NCBI GenBank assembly: GCA_963676105.1 | Contig: OY781039.1 | Location: forward strand, 240,001-272,000 | Source: Erysipelotrichaceae bacterium | Lineage (GTDB): Bacteria > Bacillota_I > Bacilli_A > Erysipelotrichales > Erysipelotrichaceae | Direction: 5' to 3' | DNA length: 32,000 nucleotides | Shown here: piece by piece, positions 3,604-22,987 of the stretch | Numbering within the stretch: the first letter of the stretch is position 1 | Layout of the letters: the number at the start of each line of letters is the position of its first letter | Notes under the pieces: generated by a model | Told to the model about the DNA's origin: nothing | What the model saw: the letters and a program-made list of their open reading frames with translations, nothing else | Database searches by the model: none | Position numbers and translations under genes: made by a program

Positions 3604-4692
3604 ATGAATAAATTTGAGTATATGGAAAAACATGGTTATGAACAATTAATGTATTTTCATGATCGGCATTCAGGTTTGAAGGGGATTATCTGTATCCATA
3701 ACACAGCTTTAGGTCCTGCCTTAGGTGGAACTCGTGTTTGGGAATATGAAGATGAAGAAGCTGCAGTCTTAGATGTTATGCGCTTAGCACGTGGGATGAC
3801 TAAAAAAGCAGCCTGTGCAGGCTTGAATTTAGGGGGCGGTAAAGCAGTAATTATTGGTAATTCAAAAGCTTTACGCAAAGATACCGTACGTAGAGAGGCT
3901 TTCTGGCGTGCTTTTGGGAAATATTTAGATTCATTAAATGGTCGTTTTATTACCGCAGAAGATGTTGGAACATGTCCTGATGATATGCATTTTGTACAAA
4001 TGGAAAGTGAGCATGTGGTCGGTTTACCAGATACCTCAGGAGATCCTTCACCATTTACGGCATATGGTGTTTTAAAAGGGATGAAAGCTTGTTTAAAAGA
4101 AAGTCAAAACTCAAGTAGTCTTAAAGGGATTACGGTGGCGATTGAAGGGGTTGGACATGTGGGGAGTTCATTATGCGAACTGCTTCATAAAGAAGGTGCA
4201 AACTTAATTATTAGCGATATTGATGACGAAAGCGTTAAAGAAGTTGCGAAAAAATATAATGCGAAAATCGTAGGTGTAGATAAAATACGGTCTGTTGACT
4301 GTGATATTTATGCGCCATGTGCACTTGGGGCAAGTATTAATGATGAATCTCTAAAATCGCTTAAATGTAAAATTATTGCGGGTTCTGCCAATAATCAATT
4401 AGAAGATTCTAAAAAACATGGAACCAAACTTCATGAAATGGGTTTTATCTATGCACCTGACTACGTTATTAACGCTGGTGGTTTAATCAATGTCTATCAA
4501 GAACGTATTGGCTACAATAAGCACTTCGCAATGGTTCAAATTGACCGTATCTATGATCGAATACGTGAAATTATCCGTGAATCGATTGAAACCAATACGC
4601 CAACCTTTCTAGTAGCTGATAACATGGCACAAAGACGCATTGAAATGATGCGAGATATTAATTCAATTTATATTGGCGATGACAAAAAATAG
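3604..4692 (+). CDS. Leucine (branched-chain amino acid) dehydrogenase, Glu/Leu/Phe/Val dehydrogenase family
   Basis: Supporting motifs are GPALGGTRVWEY, the catalytic-Lys region KKAACAGLNLGGGKAVI, and the Rossmann motif GVGHVGS. I prefer the ATG at 3604 (GGGAG 7 nt upstream) over the track's GTG at 3598. Confidence 0.85.
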   Translation: MNKFEYMEKHGYEQLMYFHDRHSGLKGIICIHNTALGPALGGTRVWEYEDEEAAVLDVMRLARGMTKKAACAGLNLGGGKAVIIGNSKALRKDTVRREAFWRAFGKYLDSLNGRFITAEDVGTCPDDMHFVQMESEHVVGLPDTSGDPSPFTAYGVLKGMKACLKESQNSSSLKGITVAIEGVGHVGSSLCELLHKEGANLIISDIDDESVKEVAKKYNAKIVGVDKIRSVDCDIYAPCALGASINDESLKSLKCKIIAGSANNQLEDSKKHGTKLHEMGFIYAPDYVINAGGLINVYQERIGYNKHFAMVQIDRIYDRIREIIRESIETNTPTFLVADNMAQRRIEMMRDINSIYIGDDKK

Positions 4693-5341
4693 AATCATCG
4701 TAAGTGGTGCATATGGTGTAGGAAAAAGTGAGTTTTGTGTTCAATATGCGCTACAAAATTCACCTTGTACGATTGCAGATTTTGATATATTAAACCCTTA
4801 TTTTAGACCAAGAGAGATTAAATCATTTCTTGAATCTAAATATGTTAAAGTCATCGCATCTCATATAAATGAAGGTTTAAATCAAGATGTACCCGCCATG
4901 AGTTTCGCATTAAACGCTGCTGTATTAAATAATGAAAACATCTTAATAGACTGCGCTGGTAGTGTGAATGGTTTAAGAGTTCTACATTCACTTGATGAAA
5001 ACTTTGATAAAGCTGAATTCTGGTTAGTTTTAAATCTAAATCGCATGGAATCCAATCTTAAAGAGTTTGATTCTTTGATTGAAGATTATGAGAGAGATTC
5101 TAAACGAAAAATAACAGGATTTATAAATAATACTCATCTCTTAGATGAAACGAGTTCTGAAATGATCATTGAATCGCAAAGAAAAATTGAAGCGTTTATA
5201 AAAACGAAAAATATACCTGTGGTCTATACAATGATTCATGAATCATTTGTAGAAGAATGCATAGATAAGATAAATAATCCAATACTTGTGATAAGTCATA
5301 TGTATTTACGAGAAGAATGGATGAAAGGAGTCACACTGTGA
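4679..5341 (+). CDS. Uncharacterised P-loop NTPase (SIMIBI/G3E-like) embedded in the oxidoreductase operon
   Basis: The Walker A motif is SGAYGVGKSE, with DCAG as a Walker B/G3-like motif and NNTH in an NKxD-like position. The start overlaps the ldh 3' end (ATG at 4679, or TTG at 4673). The stop overlaps the ferredoxin-subunit start (GTGA). Confidence 0.6.
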   Translation: MTKNRIIVSGAYGVGKSEFCVQYALQNSPCTIADFDILNPYFRPREIKSFLESKYVKVIASHINEGLNQDVPAMSFALNAAVLNNENILIDCAGSVNGLRVLHSLDENFDKAEFWLVLNLNRMESNLKEFDSLIEDYERDSKRKITGFINNTHLLDETSSEMIIESQRKIEAFIKTKNIPVVYTMIHESFVEECIDKINNPILVISHMYLREEWMKGVTL

Positions 5342-12930: not shown

Positions 12931-12986
12931 AAACAGTCCCAATGATGCGACCCCTGTCAAGTAGACAGTGGAAATAAGTAAAGATT

Positions 12987-13016
12987 AGATGATCCAGAAA
13001 ATGGGTCATCTTTTTT
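12987..13016 (+). terminator. Terminator-like hairpin inside the IS left end, oriented against read-in from serA
   Basis: AGATGATCCA pairs with TGGGTCATCT as a 10-bp stem (one G-U pair) across a 5-nt loop, followed by T6 at 13011-13016. Confidence 0.4.
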
Positions 13017-13914
13017 AGTTTCTTATTTCTTGATTTTGTTTTATGGTTTCATAGTATTTTATGATTCGATTATTTGGTTTAATTGGGTATTGTGGAATGA
13101 CCTGACTATTTAAAGCTGCTTCTCTAACTTCAATAGGTGTTTGATTATTGAATCTGCTTTGAAATCTTTGATGATTGTAGAAGGACATATATTTATGAAT
13201 AGCTTGGTTTAAATCTTGTAGGTTTTCATATTTATGATGATGATACATCTCTGATTTAATAATGCCCCAGAAACCTTCAATCGGTCCATTATCGATACAG
13301 CGGCCAACTCTAGACATGCTTTGTGTCAATCCATTTGTTTCTAACTTATATTTGAATACTTTACTTGTATATTGGAATCCTCTATCTGAATGAAACAGTG
13401 GTTTCGCACCTGGATTAAGACTCATTGCTTTCTCAAAAGTGTTGAATACAAGTTGATTATTATTACGTCCACTTATCTCATACGCAACGATACTTCGATC
13501 ATATAAATCTAAGATGGCACTTAAATAGAGTTTCTGTTTTGTATGTCGATCTTTAAACTCAGTTACGTCTGTGACCCACTTTTGATTAGGTGCACTAGCG
13601 AAGAAATCTCTCGCTAAGATATTCTCAGCAGTAATCTCAGGTTCTGACTTATGATAGTTATTCTTCTTTTTACGTATGACGGATTTTATCCCTAATAGTC
13701 GCATCATACGACGAACACGTTTTTGATTATAATTTTTATGATTCAATCGATTAATGGCTATTGTCATACGTCGATAACCATAGATATGATCGAATATTTC
13801 ATCATACTCAAGTATCCATTGTGCAATTTGTTGGTTTTCCTTCTCTTGTGCTGTTTCAGTGCGTTTTAACCACTTATAGTAACTAGATCTCGGTATCTCT
13901 AATACCTGACACAT
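13015..13914 (-). CDS. IS3-family transposase OrfB (DDE integrase domain), probably made as an OrfAB fusion by -1 frameshifting
   Basis: The DDE triad contexts are WVTDVTEF, HSDRGFQY and NGPIEGFWG. The reading frame stays open upstream to the slippery site near 14019-14025. Confidence 0.85.
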   Translation of the reverse strand: MCQVLEIPRSSYYKWLKRTETAQEKENQQIAQWILEYDEIFDHIYGYRRMTIAINRLNHKNYNQKRVRRMMRLLGIKSVIRKKKNNYHKSEPEITAENILARDFFASAPNQKWVTDVTEFKDRHTKQKLYLSAILDLYDRSIVAYEISGRNNNQLVFNTFEKAMSLNPGAKPLFHSDRGFQYTSKVFKYKLETNGLTQSMSRVGRCIDNGPIEGFWGIIKSEMYHHHKYENLQDLNQAIHKYMSFYNHQRFQSRFNNQTPIEVREAALNSQVIPQYPIKPNNRIIKYYETIKQNQEIRN

Positions 13915-13958
13915 CCAATGTATACTCCAGTGATAATCTCTTTGACAGCTTTGTATGG

Positions 13959-14672
13959 CTAAGTATTTCGCTTCTTGTCTAACTTGACTGAATACCGCCT
14001 CCTTTCGAATTCCTTCACTTTTTTTAAGAGTGTGTTCTCATTCTCTTTAAGTTCTAATTGTTTCTCGAGTTGATCTATCTTCTTCTGCAGCTTTTCAACT
14101 TCACTTAAACTATCTTCTAGTTTTCGTTTACCACGTCGATCAAGTAAACCATCTTGTCCTTCAAGTTCATATTTCTTCACCCATTGATAAACTTGAGAAT
14201 ACGACACTTGATAAACTTCAGCTGCCTTTTTAAATTCACGATTGTGTTTGAGACAATACTCTACAATTTCAACCCGCTCTGCTAAATTTGTCTTCCTTCT
14301 TCCAGCCATATAAACATCTCCCTTAGGATCATAGTCCTTCAGTTCTATATGGTTATTATACTTTCTAAGCCAATTTAATATGATGGAATGGGATGATATT
14401 TGATACTTAATACGCAATCCTTCTAAGGAATCAACGCCGTTAAGATATTCGTGTATGACATTATCTTTTAGTTCTTTTGTATAGCGTTTGTTTCGTTCTT
14501 TATCTTCAAAAATTTCTCTGCCATATTTTTGATAACTATGTATCCATTGACGAACCGTGTAAGCTCGAACATTAAATTCAAATCCTAGTTGGTTCACTGA
14601 TTTTTCACCTCTTAAAAAAGTTTTTACTATTTCTACTTTAATTTCAGGACTATATTTATTCTTACGTCCCAT
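13959..14672 (-). CDS. IS3-family transposase OrfA (multiple HTH domains plus leucine-zipper-like coiled coil)
   Basis: There are repeated HTH segments (YSPEIKVEIV..., RRKTNLAERVEIVEYC...) and a C-terminal LQKKIDQLEKQLELKENE coiled coil. I prefer the ATG at 14672 (AGGAGG 8 nt upstream) over the track start at 14735. Confidence 0.8.
   Translation of the reverse strand: MGRKNKYSPEIKVEIVKTFLRGEKSVNQLGFEFNVRAYTVRQWIHSYQKYGREIFEDKERNKRYTKELKDNVIHEYLNGVDSLEGLRIKYQISSHSIILNWLRKYNNHIELKDYDPKGDVYMAGRRKTNLAERVEIVEYCLKHNREFKKAAEVYQVSYSQVYQWVKKYELEGQDGLLDRRGKRKLEDSLSEVEKLQKKIDQLEKQLELKENENTLLKKVKEFERRRYSVKLDKKRNT
14019..14025 (-). other. Programmed -1 ribosomal frameshift site (A AAA AAA G) joining orfA and orfB
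   Basis: The minus strand reads CTC TTA AAA AAA GTG in the orfA frame. A shift to -1 gives ...KKSEGIRKEAVFSQVRQEAKYLAIQSCQRDYHWSIHWMCQVLEIPRSSYYKW, which is continuous with OrfB. Confidence 0.6.
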
Positions 14673-14748
14673 ATAAAAAATCCCTCCTTTCAACTTTGCA
14701 TATTTGCATTGTCTACTTTGGAGGGATCTTATCACAAGTGGACTGTTT

Positions 14749-14830: not shown

Positions 14831-16156
14831 GTGATTGAATTAAAGAATTTAGTAAAGACGTATACAAGTCGTCGGGGTGTTCAAACACATGCTTTAACTG
14901 ATTTTTCTTTAACCTTACCAGATACAGGCTTAGTATTTATTCTAGGAAAATCTGGGAGTGGTAAATCAACCTTATTAAATATTTTGGGTGGATTAGATAA
15001 AGCAGATGAAGGTGAAGTATTAATTAATGGAAAAAATATTGAAGGCTATGATCAAAAAGAATTAGATTTTTATCGTAATGCTCATGTTGGGTTTGTATTT
15101 CAAGACTTTAATATTATTGATACGTTCAGTATTTATGAAAATGTAGGCTTAGCACTACAACTACAAGGTCAAAAAGCGGATAAGAATCGTATTGATAAAA
15201 TGCTAGACTTTGTTGATTTAAGCGGTTATGGAAAACGAAAAGGTAATGAAGTTTCAGGTGGTCAAAAACAACGTATCGCTGTTGCGCGAGCATTGATTAA
15301 AGAACCTACGATTATTTTAGCTGATGAACCAACGGGTAACTTAGATTTAAAAACATCGGATCAAATTATGCAATTACTTAAAAAGGTCTCTGAAGATAAT
15401 CTAGTTGTTGTGGTTTCTCATGATCCAGAAGAAGCAGAAGCTTTTGGCGATCGTGTCATTCATATTAAAGATGGCCATATTGTGAAAGATATAGGGAATA
15501 CGAGTGATAAACAATCTAATCGTGAATATCCTCAAATTCATCCAAAATTATCATTTATTGCCTCAATAAAATATGGTGTACATGCCTTATCTAAGAAAAA
15601 AGGTCAATTGTTAGTGACGAATTTTGTGGTGTCACTTAGTTTATTGTTTTCAGTATTACTTGGAGCATATTTAAGTTTTCTAAGTAATCCAAATCCAGAG
15701 TTACTAACTTTATTAACACCTGATGAATTAGATTTCATGACGCGTGATTTAATGGGTTATTTATCCCAGGATTCAGCGTTTAAACTTTTAATTGCGATGT
15801 ACATTATTTTTGTATCTGTTATTTATGTCTTCTTGTCTTTAAGTATTGCGCAACGAAAAAAACAAATTGGTATCTTTAAAGCCCTAGGTGCAAACACAGG
15901 AGATATTCTTAAAATCTTTGCTTGGGAAGGTATTATTATTACATTAGTTTCTGGTGTTTTCTCAACTTATTTAGGATTGTCTTATGCATTAGATATGAAT
16001 ATTAAATTTTTTGATTCATATAATTTGTTGATTGCGAACCCACTACAACTTGGGATCAATATTTTGGCATTATTAGTTATTACAGTAAGTTTCACGACTC
16101 TTTTGGTTTTATCAACCCTTAAAAAGAATTCAGTGATTTCTATTTTGAAGGCGTAG
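14831..16156 (+). CDS. Fused ABC ATPase-FtsX permease (MacB-like) with an almost absent extracytoplasmic domain
   Basis: The N-terminal nucleotide-binding domain has [28 protein letters not shown] and VSHD. The C-terminal FtsX domain has four TM segments, with only ~35 aa between TM1 and TM2. It starts at a GTG with AAGGAG upstream. Confidence 0.8.
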   Translation: MIELKNLVKTYTSRRGVQTHALTDFSLTLPDTGLVFILGKSGSGKSTLLNILGGLDKADEGEVLINGKNIEGYDQKELDFYRNAHVGFVFQDFNIIDTFSIYENVGLALQLQGQKADKNRIDKMLDFVDLSGYGKRKGNEVSGGQKQRIAVARALIKEPTIILADEPTGNLDLKTSDQIMQLLKKVSEDNLVVVVSHDPEEAEAFGDRVIHIKDGHIVKDIGNTSDKQSNREYPQIHPKLSFIASIKYGVHALSKKKGQLLVTNFVVSLSLLFSVLLGAYLSFLSNPNPELLTLLTPDELDFMTRDLMGYLSQDSAFKLLIAMYIIFVSVIYVFLSLSIAQRKKQIGIFKALGANTGDILKIFAWEGIIITLVSGVFSTYLGLSYALDMNIKFFDSYNLLIANPLQLGINILALLVITVSFTTLLVLSTLKKNSVISILKA

Positions 16157-16166
16157 GGATTGAAAT

Positions 16167-18215
16167 ATGATCGAAATTAAAAATATAAATAAAACATATA
16201 AAGCAAAATCAAAAAATAGTGTAGAAGCCATTAAAGGTGTTGATTTAGAATTTTCTCGTCATGGCTTAGTTTTCTTATTAGGTAAATCAGGTTCAGGTAA
16301 ATCTACTTTCCTTAATATATTAGGGGGATTAGATTCAGCTAATACATCACGTATTTATATCAATGGCGAAAAACTAGATCGATTCGATGAAACAACTTGT
16401 TCAAATTATCGTAATACCTATGTTGGTTTTATCTTTCAAGAATACAATTTATTAAATGAATTAAATGTTTATAAGAATATTGAATTAGCGCTGCAGATGA
16501 TTGGTCAAACTGAAGATAATCATGAGAAGATCATGAATGTCTTAAAACGTGTTGACCTTGAAGGCTTAGAAGATCGTGAACTTGATGAATTATCAGGTGG
16601 TCAAAAACAACGAGTTGCGATTGCACGTGCTTTAGTTAAAGATCCTACGATTATTTTAGCGGATGAACCAACAGGTAACTTAGACTCTGAAACATCTGAA
16701 CAAGTGTTTGAACTCTTTAAAGAGTTATCTAAAGACCGTTTAGTGATTGTGGTAACCCATGACTCAGAATATGCTCATGTCTATGGAGATCGAATAATTG
16801 AAATTTCAGATGGTGAAATTGTGGCAGACAGCGCACCTAAAGCAGATGAAGATCATTTAGATGTACCAAAAATGATTAAGCCAAAACTCCCTTGGGAATT
16901 TATCTTTAAGATGAGTATTGGTAATGTTTTAAATAATAAGTTAAGAATGGTTGTTACAGCTGTGATTACAGCATTCTTAGTAGCGATTTTATCGGCTGTA
17001 TATACAATGTTGTATGTATCAGATAGTGTGAATACAGATATTATGAGCTTATCAAATCAAGAACATGTTTTGATTACGCGTACAGTTCCTCAAGGTTTAT
17101 TCTTTAATTTCTCTTTTGATGGAGAAGATTTTACTTCAAACACCAACGAGATACCTCAAGAAAAAGTTGAAGGTGCTATTGAAATTTCTAACAATGCGAA
17201 TGCGACTTTATATGATAAGACCTATGTATTAGTTGATAACAATCCAATCGTGATTGCAGATTTAAACATTGATGCTTCTGATTTAGAAACTGACTATGTG
17301 GATGAACCACTAGAAGCCATGGTAAATACCATAAATCAAACACCTCTTACTTTCAGTGCAGTTGAAGAAAATAGTGTTCTTTATAAAGATTTATTGGGTT
17401 TTGTACCTCAAAATGACTCTGAAGTGGTTGTTTCTTCATATGTGGCTGATTGGTTGATTAATGCAGGTCTTGCAGAAAATCATCAATCGCTCATTGATGC
17501 ACAAGTTAATATTAGTTTAGATGGTTTAAATCCATTAAAACTTGTGGGGATTATTGAATATACAACACCTATCTTAAATCAAGAATTTACTGCATTGTAT
17601 ACGGTAGGGAATAGTTTCTATGTTCATGAATCATTCTTTGATCAAAGTATACAAACACATACTGAACAATATGGAATATATGTCGCGGATGTAGAAGATA
17701 TGCCAACTTTTACTCAAGATATAAAAAACTTGGGAACCATGACAGTAACACCTAACTATAAAGAAGATTTAAATCAATACACACGTTATGATTTAACACT
17801 TGTGATATCGGTTATAGTTCCTGTTATAGGGTATTTAGCCTTTGTCTTCTTAGCGAACTATATTTCATCTTCTATCTTATTTAGAAAGAAACAAATTGGT
17901 ATCTTAAGAGCGATTGGTAATTATATTTCAAATGTAGAACATATTTTTAGACTAGAAGCTATCTTTGTTGGGGCGATAGTCATGGCGCTTGTTTACTTCA
18001 TGATTCCAATTTTTGTGGATATCGTGAACTTTGCGTTTATGGTTCACTTCCAAGATACGTTCTTATCCTTCTATCACTATCAAATCTATCATGTTGGTTT
18101 AAGCTCAATTATTGAAATCTTCTTACTATTAAGCCTTATGATTACGGTTTTAACCTTTACATTAACCCACAACATCAATCTAATTGATCCAGTGGATGTT
18201 ATTAGCGGGCGATAA
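16167..18215 (+). CDS. Fused ABC ATPase-FtsX permease (MacB-like) with a ~270-aa extracytoplasmic domain
   Basis: The nucleotide-binding domain has [28 protein letters not shown] and VTHD. After TM1 there is a long hydrophilic domain with a MacB-periplasmic-domain-like pattern ([12 protein letters not shown]...LVGII), then a three-TM FtsX domain ([13 protein letters not shown]). Confidence 0.8.
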
Positions 18216-18217
18216 GT

Positions 18218-19336
18218 ATGTTAGCAATCGGTTTGATGTCAGGCACTTCACTTGATGGAGTTGATGCAGTCTTATGTGAGATTACAGGTGTCGATGAAAC
18301 AACACAAATCAAACAAATCGATTTTATCTGTGTGCCTTTTAAGTTAGCACTGAAAGAAAAATTACTAAATTTATTAGAAAATCATCATACAACAACACGT
18401 TTTATCAGTAGTTTAAATTTTGAACTTGGCTATGCATTTGCGGATGTTGTTAAAGAATTATTAAAAAGGAACCATCTGAAATCTTCAGATGTTTCTTTTG
18501 TTTCATCACATGGTCAAACCATTTATCATTTACCTAATCCAATTCAAGGGGAGTTTGCTTCAACACTACAGTTAGGTGAAGCTGCCGTTATTGCCTATGA
18601 ATGTGGTATACAAGTTGTATCAAATTTTAGAGTGATGGATATGGCAGCTGGTGGACAGGGTGCACCACTCGTACCTTTTAGTGAAAGTATTTTATATGGG
18701 CAAACAAGTGAGAGAACTGTTTTACTCAATCTAGGAGGTATCGCAAACATAACAGTTTTGGATGAAAAAATACTTGCGTTTGATACAGGTCCAGCCAATA
18801 TGATGATTGATGAAGCCATGAGAATCTTTTACAAAAAAGAATATGATGAGAATGCAGAAGTTGCACAAACAGGAATGATAAATGATGCATTATTTGATGT
18901 TTTAAAATCTCATCCTTATTTGACATTTAACTATCCAAAAACCACTGGTCGAGAAGATTTTGGAGCGGAATATGTTCAGTCTATTTTAGAAGATTTTAAA
19001 TTACTAGATTCCCAAGATATTATACGGACATTGACGTATTTTACTTCATATTGTGTCGCAAAAGCACTAAGTGATGTGGGTGGAACTTTTGATCGCTTAA
19101 TTGTCTCAGGTGGTGGTGCTTATAATCCACTGATTTTAAAAGATTTAGCTGATTTATGTGATGTTAAAGACGTATTAACGCAAGAAGATTTAGGGTATTC
19201 TTCTGCTTCAAAAGAAGCCATTGCCTTTGTCATTTGTGGAAATCAAACACTTCATCACAAACCATCAAACGTACCGAGCGTAACGGGTGCACAAAAGAAT
19301 CTAGTTTTAGGTAGTATCACAGCGATTCCTTATTAG
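18218..19336 (+). CDS. anmK: Anhydro-N-acetylmuramic acid kinase
   Basis: The protein is 372 aa with the N-terminal GLMSGTSLDGVDAVL motif and the later NLGGIAN, FDTGPAN and SGGGAYN motifs typical of AnmK. It starts 2 nt after the preceding stop. Confidence 0.9.
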   Translation: MLAIGLMSGTSLDGVDAVLCEITGVDETTQIKQIDFICVPFKLALKEKLLNLLENHHTTTRFISSLNFELGYAFADVVKELLKRNHLKSSDVSFVSSHGQTIYHLPNPIQGEFASTLQLGEAAVIAYECGIQVVSNFRVMDMAAGGQGAPLVPFSESILYGQTSERTVLLNLGGIANITVLDEKILAFDTGPANMMIDEAMRIFYKKEYDENAEVAQTGMINDALFDVLKSHPYLTFNYPKTTGREDFGAEYVQSILEDFKLLDSQDIIRTLTYFTSYCVAKALSDVGGTFDRLIVSGGGAYNPLILKDLADLCDVKDVLTQEDLGYSSASKEAIAFVICGNQTLHHKPSNVPSVTGAQKNLVLGSITAIPY

Positions 19337-19371
19337 AGTCGTTGTTTTTTTATGTTTGCGTATTACAAAAG

Positions 19372-19380
19372 TGATACAAT
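19372..19380 (+). promoter_or_regulatory. Extended -10 promoter candidate for the FtsX-ATPase-PASTA operon
   Basis: TGaTACAAT lies in the anmK-ftsX-like gap, 35 nt upstream of the ATG at 19416. Confidence 0.4.
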
Positions 19381-19415
19381 TATTGTGCGCTAAATGGAGC
19401 GTTATGGGGAGGCAT

Positions 19416-20822
19416 ATGAATTTTATACATCGAGCATTCTTAAGTATGACAAGACGCTTAGACAAAAGTTTATTATTGTTTTTAATTGTCTTTATTTTAA
19501 GTAATGTAATGGCAGGTTCGATTGCGATATCACAAGCATCTGAAAATGTCGAAGCAACAATGAAACAACAGTTGGGGGCAAATGCGACTGTTGAAATTGA
19601 TTATGAAAAAATCCAAGACTGGAATGAAGAACAGTGGCAAGAACTTATCTGGGTTACACCTGAAATGGTGGATAATATTGGCGCATTAGAACAAGTTAAA
19701 TATTATGACTATAATATTCAAGCTTGGATGATGGGGAATGATTTAAAAGAATATAACCCTAATAATGGTCCAACTGATTATGAAGCCTATTTTGAAGTCA
19801 AAGGTGTTCACTTTGCGGAGGTTTTAGATATTGCGACAGGAGAGGCAGACCTTGTTGATGGTCGTGTTTTCACACAAAGTGAAATTGACAATAATGAAGC
19901 GTTTGCGCTTGTTTCACAACAATTCGCTGAAGTGAATAATTTGAACTTAGGCGACTTAGTACTTTTATCTCAAAGTTTTTGGGATGAAGAAGGTGAAGAA
20001 ATCCGCCAAGACTTTTTCTTTGAAATTATTGGTCTATATTCACCTAATGTTGACTTAGAAAATAATGATGATCCTAATAGATGGATTGACTATACAGCCT
20101 TTAATCGTATCTATACATCCAATGGTGCAGTACAAGCTGTCAATGATTGGCAAAATGCGATGTATGCAGAAATTTATCCTGACATGGAATTAAACAATTT
20201 TGTGTATATCACACCTACGTTTGTTTTAAATGATCCTGAAGCTGTTGAAAGTTTTAAGGTGGATGCATTGGCGTTCTTACCTGATTATTATCGAGTTCGA
20301 GCAGATGCAGATGCTTATGAATCTGTAGCTGGACCAATTAACTTTATTGGTTCACTTTCAAATATGATCTTATGGGTTGCGATTTTTGCGACTATCCTAA
20401 TACTAAGTTTAGTTGTTGTACTATTCTTACGTGATCGAAAACATGAATTTGGTATTTATTTATCCCTTGGTGAAGCAAAATGGAAAGTTTTATCACAAAT
20501 TGTGGCTGAAGTATTCATCGTGTCTTTCTTAGCGATTACATTATCCATGTTCTCTGGAACAATGATTGCAGATGCAACATCACAAAGTATGATTGATATG
20601 GGTGTCGGTATGGATAATCCTGATGATGGATGGATTGAACCACTTTATTATTATGGGGGCAATAATATTTCTCAAGAAGATGTTATTAATGCCTATGATG
20701 TTAACTTTAATTTAGAATATGTCTTAGTACTCTATGGTGTGGGACTTGGAACTGTTTTAGTTTCAACGATTGCGCCAATGTTGTATCTTCTTAGATTGAA
20801 ACCTAAGAAGATCTTGATGTAA
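19416..20822 (+). CDS. FtsX-family ABC transporter permease with a large extracytoplasmic domain
   Basis: TM1 is LLLFLIVFILSNVMAGSIAI, followed by a ~270-aa hydrophilic domain and a C-terminal FtsX domain (FLRDRKHEFGIYLSLGE...). I prefer the ATG at 19416 (GGGAGG 5 nt upstream) over the track start at 19356. Confidence 0.8.
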   Translation: MNFIHRAFLSMTRRLDKSLLLFLIVFILSNVMAGSIAISQASENVEATMKQQLGANATVEIDYEKIQDWNEEQWQELIWVTPEMVDNIGALEQVKYYDYNIQAWMMGNDLKEYNPNNGPTDYEAYFEVKGVHFAEVLDIATGEADLVDGRVFTQSEIDNNEAFALVSQQFAEVNNLNLGDLVLLSQSFWDEEGEEIRQDFFFEIIGLYSPNVDLENNDDPNRWIDYTAFNRIYTSNGAVQAVNDWQNAMYAEIYPDMELNNFVYITPTFVLNDPEAVESFKVDALAFLPDYYRVRADADAYESVAGPINFIGSLSNMILWVAIFATILILSLVVVLFLRDRKHEFGIYLSLGEAKWKVLSQIVAEVFIVSFLAITLSMFSGTMIADATSQSMIDMGVGMDNPDDGWIEPLYYYGGNNISQEDVINAYDVNFNLEYVLVLYGVGLGTVLVSTIAPMLYLLRLKPKKILM

Positions 20823-20832
20823 GGAGAAACTT

Positions 20833-21507
20833 ATGGCTATTTTAAACATACAAAATTTAAACTATCACTATCAAGATGGCGAAAATATTAGAACCATTCT
20901 TAAAGATCTAAATGTTGAATTTGAACAAGGAAAATTCTATACAGTACTTGGACAATCAGGATCTGGCAAAACCACTCTATTATCTTTGTTGTCAGCTTTA
21001 GATACACCTAAGTCCGGGAAAATTCTATTCAACAATGAAGATATTGAAGAAATTGGTCATGAACATTTTAGACGTAATGCAATTGCGATTATTTTCCAAA
21101 GCTATAATTTAGTTCCATATATGACAGCGGTAGAGAATGTCATGGTACCAATGTCCATTACTGAAAATGATATTCCAAAAGATCGAAAAACAGTTGCATA
21201 TCATCTATTAGATTATATTGGCATCACAAAAACAAAAGCTGATCGAGTGGTTAATAAATTATCGGGTGGTGAACAACAACGAGTTGCGATTGCGCGTGCT
21301 CTCGCATCCAATGTTGATGTGATTTTAGCGGATGAACCAACTGGTAATTTAGATGAATCTTTAGAAGATGAAATTATTCAAATCTTTAAGGATTTAGCAC
21401 ACACACACAATAAATGCATCATTATGGTTACCCATAATAAACATATTGCGGATGAATCGGATGTATCCTATTTATTACATAAAGGAGTTTTAAGTATCAA
21501 TGAGTGA
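20833..21507 (+). CDS. ABC transporter ATP-binding protein (MacB/LolD-type)
   Basis: Motifs are [35 protein letters not shown] and VTHN. An AAGGAG ribosome-binding site lies upstream. Confidence 0.9.
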
Positions 21508-22843
21508 TTTTTTAAATAAATTTACCGATGAAAACTACAAAGATACCATCGATAAAAAAGTAGAAAGTCCTAAGAAAAAAACAAGTTCTCTAAAAAGAGC
21601 AGAACCAACAACTCAACGTCATGAGTTTGTTGAAGAGAGTTATAAGGATCCTAACTACAAAAAGCAACAACGTACAAAATGGGTATTAGTCATTGTATCA
21701 ACAGTTATTCTAATAGCTTTAGGTGTTTTTGGCTTTATTTGGATGAATCGAGTACGTGTAATCGATTTTGTGAATCAACCGATTGGGGATATGCAAACAT
21801 GGGCAGCTCGTAATGATTTAATCCTTCAAGTAGAAGAAGTATACTCCCTTGATGTAAGTGATAATACTGTTATTGAAATGACACCTGTAGGTGGAACAAC
21901 CATTTCAAAAGGGGATATCATCACAGTCGTGGTATCTATGGGTGCTGATCCTGATGAAATACTCGTTGTTCCAGATTTTACAGGTAGTTCATATATGGAT
22001 GTTCAAATGTGGATTGATGAAGTAAAAGCAAATAATATGCGAATCTCTTATGAATATTCTGAAACCATTGAAGCAGAAAATTTTGTTCGTATTAATTTCA
22101 GTGATACTAATACAACAAATAGCTCATATCAACGTAAAGATTATGCAATTGTCTATATCTCACGTGGACCACAAGTTTATGAAAAAGATATTGAAGTTCC
22201 AGCGTGGGTTAAAGACCAATCAACTCTTACAACTGCCCAAGCGTGGGCTGATACTAATGATATTGATTTAGTGATTAATTATGTTTATTCAGCATTACCA
22301 AACGACACGATTATTTATCAATCAGTTGCGGCCGAATCAATGGTTGCGAAAAATGATACTATCACCATATCTGTTTCTAAAGGCTTATCAGTTAGTGTGC
22401 CAGATTTCATTGATAAAAATATGACTACTGCAACTTCTATGATTGCCGAGTTGAATCTATTAGACAATGTTAGTGTCGATTTAATTGAAATGTACAATAA
22501 CACCAATGCATATGGAACGTATATTTGGCAAGATCATGAAGCTGGTGAAAAGATTGATGCATCCATCACAAAACCATTTGAAATGAGAGTTTATTATTCT
22601 TTAGGAAAACCTTTTATTAATTCTCAAGTCGGTTCACTCGAATCAGTTCTTACAAGTTACTTCTACAATTTAAATTTAAACTCTGCAGAACTATCTTATT
22701 CAGTTACATACAAAAACTGTACTTCAGTAACTGATCCTGTAAAAGGTCAAATCTGTTATCAATCAAAATACAATGAGTATGTTAATACAGGCACACATAT
22801 TGATTTGATTGTTCATGATCCATCAAGTTCACAAGCATATTAA
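21500..22843 (+). CDS. Single-pass membrane protein with five tandem PASTA-like repeats and no catalytic domain
   Basis: A ~60-aa K/E/S/T-rich N-terminal tail precedes the TM segment WVLVIVSTVILIALGVFGFIW. Five ~65-aa repeats follow, each opening with a V-(P)-D-F-like strand and closing with a PASTA-type strand (VVVSMG, VYISRG, ISVSKG, VYYSLG, DLIVHD). The start overlaps the ATPase stop by 8 nt. Confidence 0.7.
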   Translation: MSDFLNKFTDENYKDTIDKKVESPKKKTSSLKRAEPTTQRHEFVEESYKDPNYKKQQRTKWVLVIVSTVILIALGVFGFIWMNRVRVIDFVNQPIGDMQTWAARNDLILQVEEVYSLDVSDNTVIEMTPVGGTTISKGDIITVVVSMGADPDEILVVPDFTGSSYMDVQMWIDEVKANNMRISYEYSETIEAENFVRINFSDTNTTNSSYQRKDYAIVYISRGPQVYEKDIEVPAWVKDQSTLTTAQAWADTNDIDLVINYVYSALPNDTIIYQSVAAESMVAKNDTITISVSKGLSVSVPDFIDKNMTTATSMIAELNLLDNVSVDLIEMYNNTNAYGTYIWQDHEAGEKIDASITKPFEMRVYYSLGKPFINSQVGSLESVLTSYFYNLNLNSAELSYSVTYKNCTSVTDPVKGQICYQSKYNEYVNTGTHIDLIVHDPSSSQAY

Positions 22844-22844
22844 T

Positions 22845-22867
22845 AAAAGACTTCGGTCTTTTTTTGT
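22845..22867 (+). terminator. Rho-independent terminator after the PASTA gene
   Basis: AAAGAC pairs with GTCTTT across a TTCG loop, followed by T8. Confidence 0.8.
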
Positions 22868-22987
22868 TTAGTCGTTTTAGAGTGCTACCATTAAATTATA
22901 TTTCAAGACAATTTCCTAGGTTAAGTGGAAAAAGTAAGAATTCATAAAAAATGTTAATCAAACTAAAATGAAGGAGGAAAGGAATCC

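Follow-up and report, generated by a model that had tools for sequence, protein, structure and literature searches.

Why should a protein that is built only of PASTA domains be encoded together with an ATP-binding cassette (ABC) transporter? PASTA domains are known on Ser/Thr kinases and on penicillin-binding proteins (PBPs), and what they sense is debated. The question is raised by a stretch of 32,000 nucleotides from an Erysipelotrichaceae bacterium (assembly GCA_963676105.1, contig OY781039.1, positions 240,001 to 272,000), here called the window, in which positions 19416-22843 hold three open reading frames (ORFs) in one direction: a permease (19416-20822), an ATPase (20833-21507) and a PASTA protein (21500-22843), all on the plus strand. 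We consider it probable that the products of this cassette form one membrane machine, consisting of a type VII ABC motor with a dedicated PASTA protein as third subunit, and that this machine has an accessory function in the cell envelope. The initial annotation of the locus, made from the letters of the sequence, did not recognise a described system. This judgement holds: a full-text literature search retrieved no paper connecting PASTA domains with FtsX or MacB transporters, and among the curated families no NCBIfam model names any of the three proteins specifically. With no published description found, the cassette points to a third context for PASTA domains, besides kinases and PBPs.

The PASTA protein and its link to the transporter genes

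The PASTA protein (447 amino acids) is predicted to be a bitopic membrane protein. In Pfam it matches the PASTA family (PF03793) with 76 bits (cut-off 23.2) over three stretches, and no other domain family; there is no Pkinase and no transpeptidase or dimerisation domain, in agreement with the earlier impression that the protein has no catalytic part. Residues 1-60 form a cytoplasmic tail containing 12 K, 6 T, 6 E, 5 S and 5 D, and a single transmembrane (TM) helix follows, WVLVIVSTVILIALGVFGFIWM (residues 61-82; 21680..21745). A K/E/S/T-rich tail of about 60 residues and one TM helix had thus been described correctly; across the family of PASTA proteins, the length of the tail varies from 54 to 147 amino acids. 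An AlphaFold2 model built with a 31-sequence alignment (predicted local distance difference test, pLDDT, 84.5) consists of a disordered tail, one long TM helix (helix at residues 53-82) and five helix-plus-strand modules, each with a pLDDT of about 90. In a Foldseek comparison with the PDB, significant matches were obtained only to PASTA regions, namely those of PrkC and PBP1 from S. aureus, of M. tuberculosis PknB and of PBP2x, the lowest E value being 3e-12. With PBP2x the structural alignment is confined to the PASTA parts, so that the protein does not qualify as a class B PBP.

Five PASTA repeats had been proposed, and five are recognised by the combination of Pfam, model and Foldseek, four of them clearly and the last as a divergent form. 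The domains D1 to D4 (residues 84-148, 156-223, 231-295 and 297-369; 21749..22606) are found by Pfam, hhalign and Foldseek and are mutually linked with 97-99.7% probability in hhalign profile-profile comparisons. The divergent, PASTA-like domain D5 (residues 372-441; 22613..22822) is identified by hhalign and in the model; it is linked to D1 and D3 only, at about 90% probability, and has a helix-plus-three-strand pattern. The PASTA helices carry a family-specific W-A-x-x-N signature. D5 contains in addition two cysteines (residues 406 and 422; YKNCTSVTDPVKGQICY), which are conserved only in the closest relatives and may form a disulfide in this distal domain.

The other two genes had been read as an FtsX-type permease and an ABC ATPase, and profile searches confirm both identities. 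The permease (468 amino acids) matches Pfam FtsX (8e-11, 42.5 bits; cut-off 25.5), while MacB_PCD stays just below its cut-off of 27 with 24.6 bits. In the AlphaFold2 model (pLDDT 79), TM1 spans residues 17-40 or so and is followed by an ectodomain of some 250 amino acids (residues 54-300); TM2 and TM3 come next, then an external loop of about 37 amino acids and TM4. Four TM helices with a large ectodomain between TM1 and TM2 are the layout of a type VII (MacB/FtsX-fold) ABC transmembrane subunit. By sequence alone, no convincing match was found among solved structures; by structure, the model matches Spr0695 (PDB 5xu1) best, and also LolC/E, MacB, YbbP, YtrF, HrtB and the ectodomain of YknZ. 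The start codon at ATG 19416, giving the N-terminus MNFIHRAF, is preferred to that of a longer TTG ORF or to the database start 12 nt upstream, because homologues begin with MNF[IL]KR. The ATPase (224 amino acids; Pfam ABC_tran 2e-34) has all its catalytic motifs intact: Walker A GQSGSGKT (40-47), the Q-loop (87-89), LSGGE (143-147), Walker B ILADEP (164-169) and the H-loop VTH (199-201). The nearest solved chains are MJ0796, LolD, YtrE, Spr0694 and MacB.

The tie between the PASTA gene and the transporter lies in the conservation of their arrangement. A homologue search starting from the PASTA protein gave 54 proteins with 25-100% identity, all of them PASTA-only, and context look-ups found the order permease-ATPase-PASTA in relatives down to 25% identity, with flanking genes that differ each time. 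A species-level genome scan yielded 77 loci in at least six orders or families of Bacillota; the hosts comprise Erysipelotrichaceae, many genera of Bacillaceae, several Streptococcus species, the Enterococcus casseliflavus group, Granulicatella, Isobaculum, Tissierellia and Clostridia. In all 77 loci the trio is intact unless a contig end intervenes, and apart from one homologue in a metagenome-assembled genome of Coriobacteriales the named hosts are all Bacillota. Whether the gene order extends beyond one strain, a point on which the first proposal depended, is thus answered by some 80 loci from several Bacillota groups. The junction is equally constant. The PASTA gene had been noted to start 8 nt inside the ATPase gene; the overlap, ATGAGTGA (21500..21507), is exactly 8 nt and suggests translational coupling, and of 79 loci, 77 show this -8 nt spacing between ATPase stop and PASTA start, with the identical octamer in 75.

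The same association appears when the permease is taken as the starting point. In three of three named genomes (Gracilibacillus, S. merionis and Breznakia), genes for the ATPase and the PASTA protein lie downstream. Among 80 metagenome loci found through the permease, a neighbouring PASTA gene is seen in 49, as far as the flanks reach; about eight are devoid of it, each at a permease identity of 35% or less, and at 36% or more, given enough flank, the PASTA gene is present in every locus. Variants of the arrangement exist as well: two distant members have the permuted order PASTA, FtsX, ABC, and in a branch with PASTA proteins of 733 amino acids a gap of 95 nt replaces the overlap. In a neighbour-joining tree of the permeases, which has no bootstrap and is indicative only, those of the triads form one clade and those of the rearranged variants a sister clade, and the PASTA-less permeases, from a B. 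cereus plasmid pair (L091) and from a second pair in S. henryi (L065), fall outside. Since synteny is near-universal, the 8-nt junction is conserved, the link is seen from both the PASTA and the permease side and it survives changed gene order, these comparative sequence data give strong support to the view that the transporter has the PASTA protein as its dedicated partner.

Some loci (L112, L127, L135, L146, L149, L039 and L043) contain two or three tandem permease genes, followed by one ATPase gene and one PASTA gene. The second permeases of these tandem variants nest inside the triad clade. Heteromeric permeases, as in LolC/LolE, are implied by this arrangement.

The comparative data also decide whether the PASTA gene could be the decayed remnant of a kinase or PBP, or else an unrelated passenger in the operon. 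A remnant is what its sole NCBIfam match might suggest, since this covers the C-terminal half of Stk1-type kinases (NF033483, model positions 285-563). The score of 124.5 bits is, however, far under the cut-off of 450, so that the protein is not a Stk1/PknB-type kinase, and start, length and N-terminal motif are conserved in over 100 clusters made at 50% identity. No remnant of a kinase or transpeptidase domain was found, and the linkage to the ABC genes holds across orders as well as through rearrangement. A truncated kinase or PBP pseudogene, which the initial annotation had kept as an alternative, is refuted by this full-length, conserved family without a catalytic fragment, and the remnant-or-passenger idea as a whole is scarcely credible.

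Cytoplasmic motifs, proposed mechanism and role

Within the PASTA protein, conservation is highest in a motif at the cytoplasmic N-terminus, with the consensus MSDFLxKFxxxxY (21500..21538), whose residues F4 and L5 do not vary among 31 sequences. The mean majority-residue fraction is 0.70 in this motif, about 0.5 in the PASTA domains and 0.29 in the variable, low-complexity, K/E/S/T-rich linker in between (21539..21631). A second, juxtamembrane motif, EExxxDPxYxxxQRxK, is located at 21632..21679. Its residue D50 is present in at least 90% of A1, the broad alignment of the family, and E45, D50 and P51 are invariant in A2, the alignment used in the genome scan for loci. Conservation of the N-terminal motif in the genome-scan loci is circular, because the scan was seeded with it; the motif is found also in three independent sets, two of them being the proteins of the homologue search and the permease-derived loci. 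In the third, a representative library at 50% identity, 104 of the 125 members of at most 1100 amino acids have the strict pattern, and obvious variants occur among the rest. The distant branch retains a [DS][FY]L core even without gene overlap, and the constraint imposed by the overlap does therefore not explain the motif.

The presence of the N-terminal motif tracks linkage to the ABC pair. A stand-alone PASTA protein of 669 amino acids without ABC neighbour (P0053) does not have it, and a search with the cytoplasmic tail alone for the motif on other ectodomains gave no candidates. The motif is likewise absent from giant PASTA proteins in the representative library (P0175, P0178-P0180, P0186, P0193, P0205 and others), which have 1100-3346 amino acids, up to about 30 repeats and signal-peptide-like N-termini. 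These giants are apparently multi-PASTA surface proteins of a separate class.

Because the N-terminal motif is conserved, the sequences suggest that coupling between the PASTA protein and the transporter occurs at least partly on the cytoplasmic side, and not solely outside the cell. The first proposal spoke of an extracytoplasmic partner; the partnership stands, but the conserved cytoplasmic motif had been overlooked. It might be imagined that the motif instead targets a protein of the divisome. The FtsZ C-terminal peptide, DIPxFLR, docks on FtsA, SepF and EzrA, and the core F-L-[NR]-K of the motif (residues 3-8, DFLNKF; within 21500-21523) bears a resemblance to this peptide.

In the machine that we favour, a permease dimer and two ATPase subunits would form a motor of the MacB/FtsX fold. 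The N-terminal and juxtamembrane motifs would dock on the cytoplasmic face of this motor, either on the ATPase or on the permease, and the TM helix of the PASTA protein would pack against the permease. Outside the membrane, the five PASTA domains would extend as a rod into the wall and bind un-cross-linked peptidoglycan or lipid II; binding to lipid II or nascent peptidoglycan has been reported for other PASTA domains. When ATP drives the permease ectodomains to move, this movement would thereby be aimed at sites of wall synthesis, or be gated by them.

Gating could also be the primary event. A muropeptide or lipid II would then dimerise the PASTA rods, as in PknB and PrkC, and the N-terminal motif would switch the ATPase, which would replace the kinase as output. 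Such a ligand-gated motor would fit with the observation that conservation is strongest in the cytoplasmic motifs and not in the ectodomain, with the alignment of the juxtamembrane-TM-PASTA region to Stk1-type kinases mentioned above, and with the unusual conservation of the ATPase, whose median identity in distant loci is 70%, as against 39% for the permease and 30% for the PASTA protein. The N-terminal motif could nevertheless equally target another cytoplasmic protein, and as an account in its own right this switch seems unlikely. It is compatible with the dedicated-subunit machine and not exclusive of it. More generally, and as a tentative possibility, such proteins may constitute a third functional class of PASTA proteins, in which the rod is wired to the ATPase of a mechanotransducing ABC motor via an N-terminal docking motif and its occupancy by nascent peptidoglycan or lipid II gates ATP-driven work on the wall, a form of signalling independent of kinases.

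As to physiology, the machine would most likely be involved in accessory protection or remodelling of the envelope, for example by freeing lipid II-cycle intermediates from wall-active compounds, by analogy with BceAB. An accessory role is favoured because the distribution is patchy, because one copy lies on a megaplasmid of Enterococcus raffinosus and because sister plasmids have a disrupted PASTA gene. The megaplasmids of this species that carry the cassette (NZ_CP072889.1 H1/H6; L092) are about 1 Mb in size. One of them has it complete; in L092 (NZ_CP081847.1, 951693-964552) the PASTA gene is split into two annotated coding sequences, copies of IS110 flank it and no permease or ATPase is annotated beside it. 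Two further observations are taken in the same sense: next to the PASTA-less pair on the B. cereus plasmid lie a response regulator and a histidine kinase of the intramembrane type, with a Bce-like pair alongside, and Bce-like modules are found near several triads. The PASTA-less pair of S. henryi has no such regulator or kinase as neighbour. Two-component systems adjoin about 16 of 87 loci, in varying positions and often as part of a neighbouring Bce-like pair, and the window has none; the idea that such a system is part of the module was rejected on account of this low number and varying position.

A core function in division seems less likely. In one alternative account the cassette is an FtsEX-like regulator, whose motor force would let the PASTA rod recruit or activate a separately encoded hydrolase or PBP and so set wall thickness or septal splitting. 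The engagement of LytB by PASTA4 of StkP is an analogue for such recruitment. In favour of this account, the permease shares its fold with FtsX, MacB and YtrF, and the PASTA domains become slightly less conserved with distance from the membrane (majority fraction 0.55 to 0.47). In one distant locus (L093, 1-4751), a permuted cassette directly follows genes for a PcsB-like coiled-coil M23 peptidase, an S41 Ctp protease with PG_binding_1, and uvrB, a neighbourhood that we take to be the usual setting of ftsEX in Bacillota. YtrF, moreover, has been proposed to work through protein partners on wall thickness (PMC8060467). However, neither a hydrolase nor a PBP gene is a conserved neighbour, and the patchy, partly plasmid-borne distribution, together with pseudogenised copies, argues against a role in core morphogenesis. 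Moreover, neither the ATPase nor the permease passes the family model for FtsE or FtsX, respectively. An FtsEX-like regulator is on balance somewhat unlikely.

A different outlet for the same components would be the export of, or immunity to, a bacteriocin of the lactococcin 972 type, with the PASTA protein shielding lipid II from a self-made lipid II-binding peptide. Among NCBIfam models the ATPase indeed scores best with L_ocin_972_ABC (TIGR03608; 187.2 bits), but this is below the cut-off of 254.85 and close to its scores with LolD (181.9 bits; cut-off 307.75) and FtsE. In one locus (L003, 917-3582) the triad is directly preceded by a LytTR response regulator, an AgrC-like kinase (HATPase_c_5) and a 47-aa ORF without Pfam family, which together look like a peptide quorum-sensing or bacteriocin unit. 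Neither a small peptide gene nor a 7-TM immunity protein is conserved beside the trio, however, and the window contains none, so that a bacteriocin system is highly improbable.

Several points weigh against the dedicated-subunit machine with an envelope function. The contact between PASTA protein and motor is one that we infer from sequence, and ligand binding by the divergent PASTA domains in this family is assumed by analogy with other PASTA proteins. Among the loci, no neighbour beyond the three genes is conserved: no hydrolase, PBP, peptide or regulator gene accompanies the trio, and no regulator site or two-component system points to a substrate. A Pfam scan of nine unusually long family members showed no Rosetta-stone fusion with an ABC or kinase domain. 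The preference for resistance over remodelling draws on the distribution and on one PASTA-less relative at 29% identity.

Flanking signals and neighbouring genes

The cassette is cleanly delimited. On its upstream side, a terminator-like hairpin found by a consensus scan at the end of anmK (19319..19345, plus strand; a stem of 10 pairs, then TTTTTTATGT) closes this gene and so sets the cassette apart from the genes before it. The initial annotation had given the three genes their own extended -10 promoter. The element, TGATACAAT, is present at 19372..19380 on the plus strand, 36 nt 5' of the start codon, and can be regarded as a candidate; no convincing -35 accompanies it, it is not listed by a two-hexamer consensus scan, and a similar element occurs in 7 of 62 homologous upstream regions. 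A ribosome-binding site for the permease, GGGGAGG, is located at 19406..19412. In the same 62 regions, sites for WalR, extracytoplasmic function sigma factors and LiaR were found in 3, 5 and 0 cases, respectively, with nothing consistent. At the other end, the strong terminator that had been claimed is present as a hairpin of canonical intrinsic form (22841..22870, plus strand) with a 7-bp stem, a UUCG loop and a U7 tail, but with a free energy of -6.2 kcal/mol (z = -2.2) it is modest; it was not flagged by the scan because its stem has fewer than three G-C pairs. An Rfam search of the window returned no RNA family.

A PADLOC check of the cassette for anti-phage systems gave generic ATPase and PASTA-kinase model matches only, and a role in phage defence was dropped for this reason.

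The genes upstream of the cassette had been taken to strengthen an envelope theme. Positions 14831-19336 of the window hold two fused ATPase-FtsX genes head to tail, 10 nt apart, one for 441 amino acids without large ectodomain and the other for 682 amino acids, MacB-like and with an ectodomain. The anmK gene begins 2 nt after the second of them, a gap that makes anmK look co-transcribed with the fused ABC system and not with the cassette of the PASTA protein. Fused pair and anmK are arranged in this way again only in an 80%-identical relative (L011), and the argument from these neighbours is not upheld.

Further upstream, on the minus strand, an insertion sequence of the IS3 family occupies positions 12943-14734. 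Its transposase is encoded in two frames, with a helix-turn-helix part at 13959-14735 and an rve integrase core at 13015-13914, and it is flanked by imperfect inverted repeats of 50 nt that are 72% complementary. At 4673-5341, an ORF of 222 amino acids with a TTG start has no Pfam family at E <= 1e-5; it stands between a Glu/Leu/Phe/Val dehydrogenase gene on one side and genes for a 2-oxoacid:ferredoxin oxidoreductase on the other.

Comparison with known systems

The cassette is widespread, and it offers a simpler, genetically separable system in which to study the ligands of PASTA rods and the passage of this information across the membrane. It is found in streptococci and enterococci, including the E. 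raffinosus megaplasmid, and a role in tolerance to wall-active antibiotics, if true, would be of practical interest. By its mode of action the cassette would, by analogy, be most like FtsEX-partner systems and three-component pumps of the MacAB type; in structure, as modelled, it is nearest to Spr0694-0695, LolCDE, MacB and YtrEF.

With FtsEX and its partners PcsB, CwlO, EnvC and RipC, the cassette shares a 4-TM permease of the FtsX fold with an ectodomain, a separate ATPase and a partner on the side of the wall, and mechanotransmission rather than transport is presumed to be common to both. The partner of FtsEX, however, is a secreted coiled-coil hydrolase or LytM factor, whereas that of the cassette is a bitopic PASTA rod with cytoplasmic motifs. 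The family models tell the two apart as well (FtsE, 177.6 bits against a cut-off of 264.85; no FtsX equivalog model matched by the permease), and the distribution of the cassette is not universal but patchy and accessory. MacAB-TolC and the MacAB-like systems of Gram-positive bacteria, Spr0693-0695 and YknXYZ, likewise comprise three components, among them a single-pass protein with a long extracytoplasmic part beside the pump. In these systems the partner is a membrane-fusion protein of the HlyD family that forms a channel. No HlyD-family gene is found in the cassette or among its conserved neighbours, which sets it apart from MacAB, and we know of no channel function of PASTA domains.

YtrEF of Bacillus subtilis (ytrGABCDEF) is also a type VII ABC pair, and its structure (9o9x) matches both the ATPase and the permease model, with about 13% identity between YtrF and the permease in the structural alignment. 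It has been linked to wall thickness and is induced by inhibitors of the lipid II cycle (PMC8060467, PMC12772383). Unlike the cassette, the Ytr operon contains a GntR-type repressor and a second ABC pair but no PASTA protein. BceAB-BceRS resembles the cassette in having an FtsX-domain permease and an ATPase, and Bce acts on targets of the lipid II cycle; BceB, however, is a 10-TM protein whose ectodomain lies between TM7 and TM8, in contrast to the four TM helices of the cassette permease, where it lies between TM1 and TM2, and a two-component system of the BceRS type is absent from the window and from the conserved set of cassette genes. The cassette is not a LolCDE system, as the ATPase scores under the LolD cut-off and the named hosts, Bacillota apart from the one Coriobacteriales homologue, are not of the diderm type that LolCDE requires. 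Nor does it belong to the lactococcin 972 ABC family, given the score under the cut-off and the lack of an adjacent Lcn972 peptide or 7-TM protein.

The PASTA kinases (PknB, PrkC, StkP, Stk1 and IreK) and the class B PBPs (PBP2x and S. aureus PBP1) have the same layout of juxtamembrane segment, TM helix and tandem PASTA domains. In contrast to these, the PASTA protein of the cassette has neither kinase nor transpeptidase, its cytoplasmic part offers two short motifs, and its gene is tied to an ABC pair. Judged from the sequences, the cassette would be a type VII ABC system whose partner belongs to a new class, in a group of transporters for which partners largely define function.

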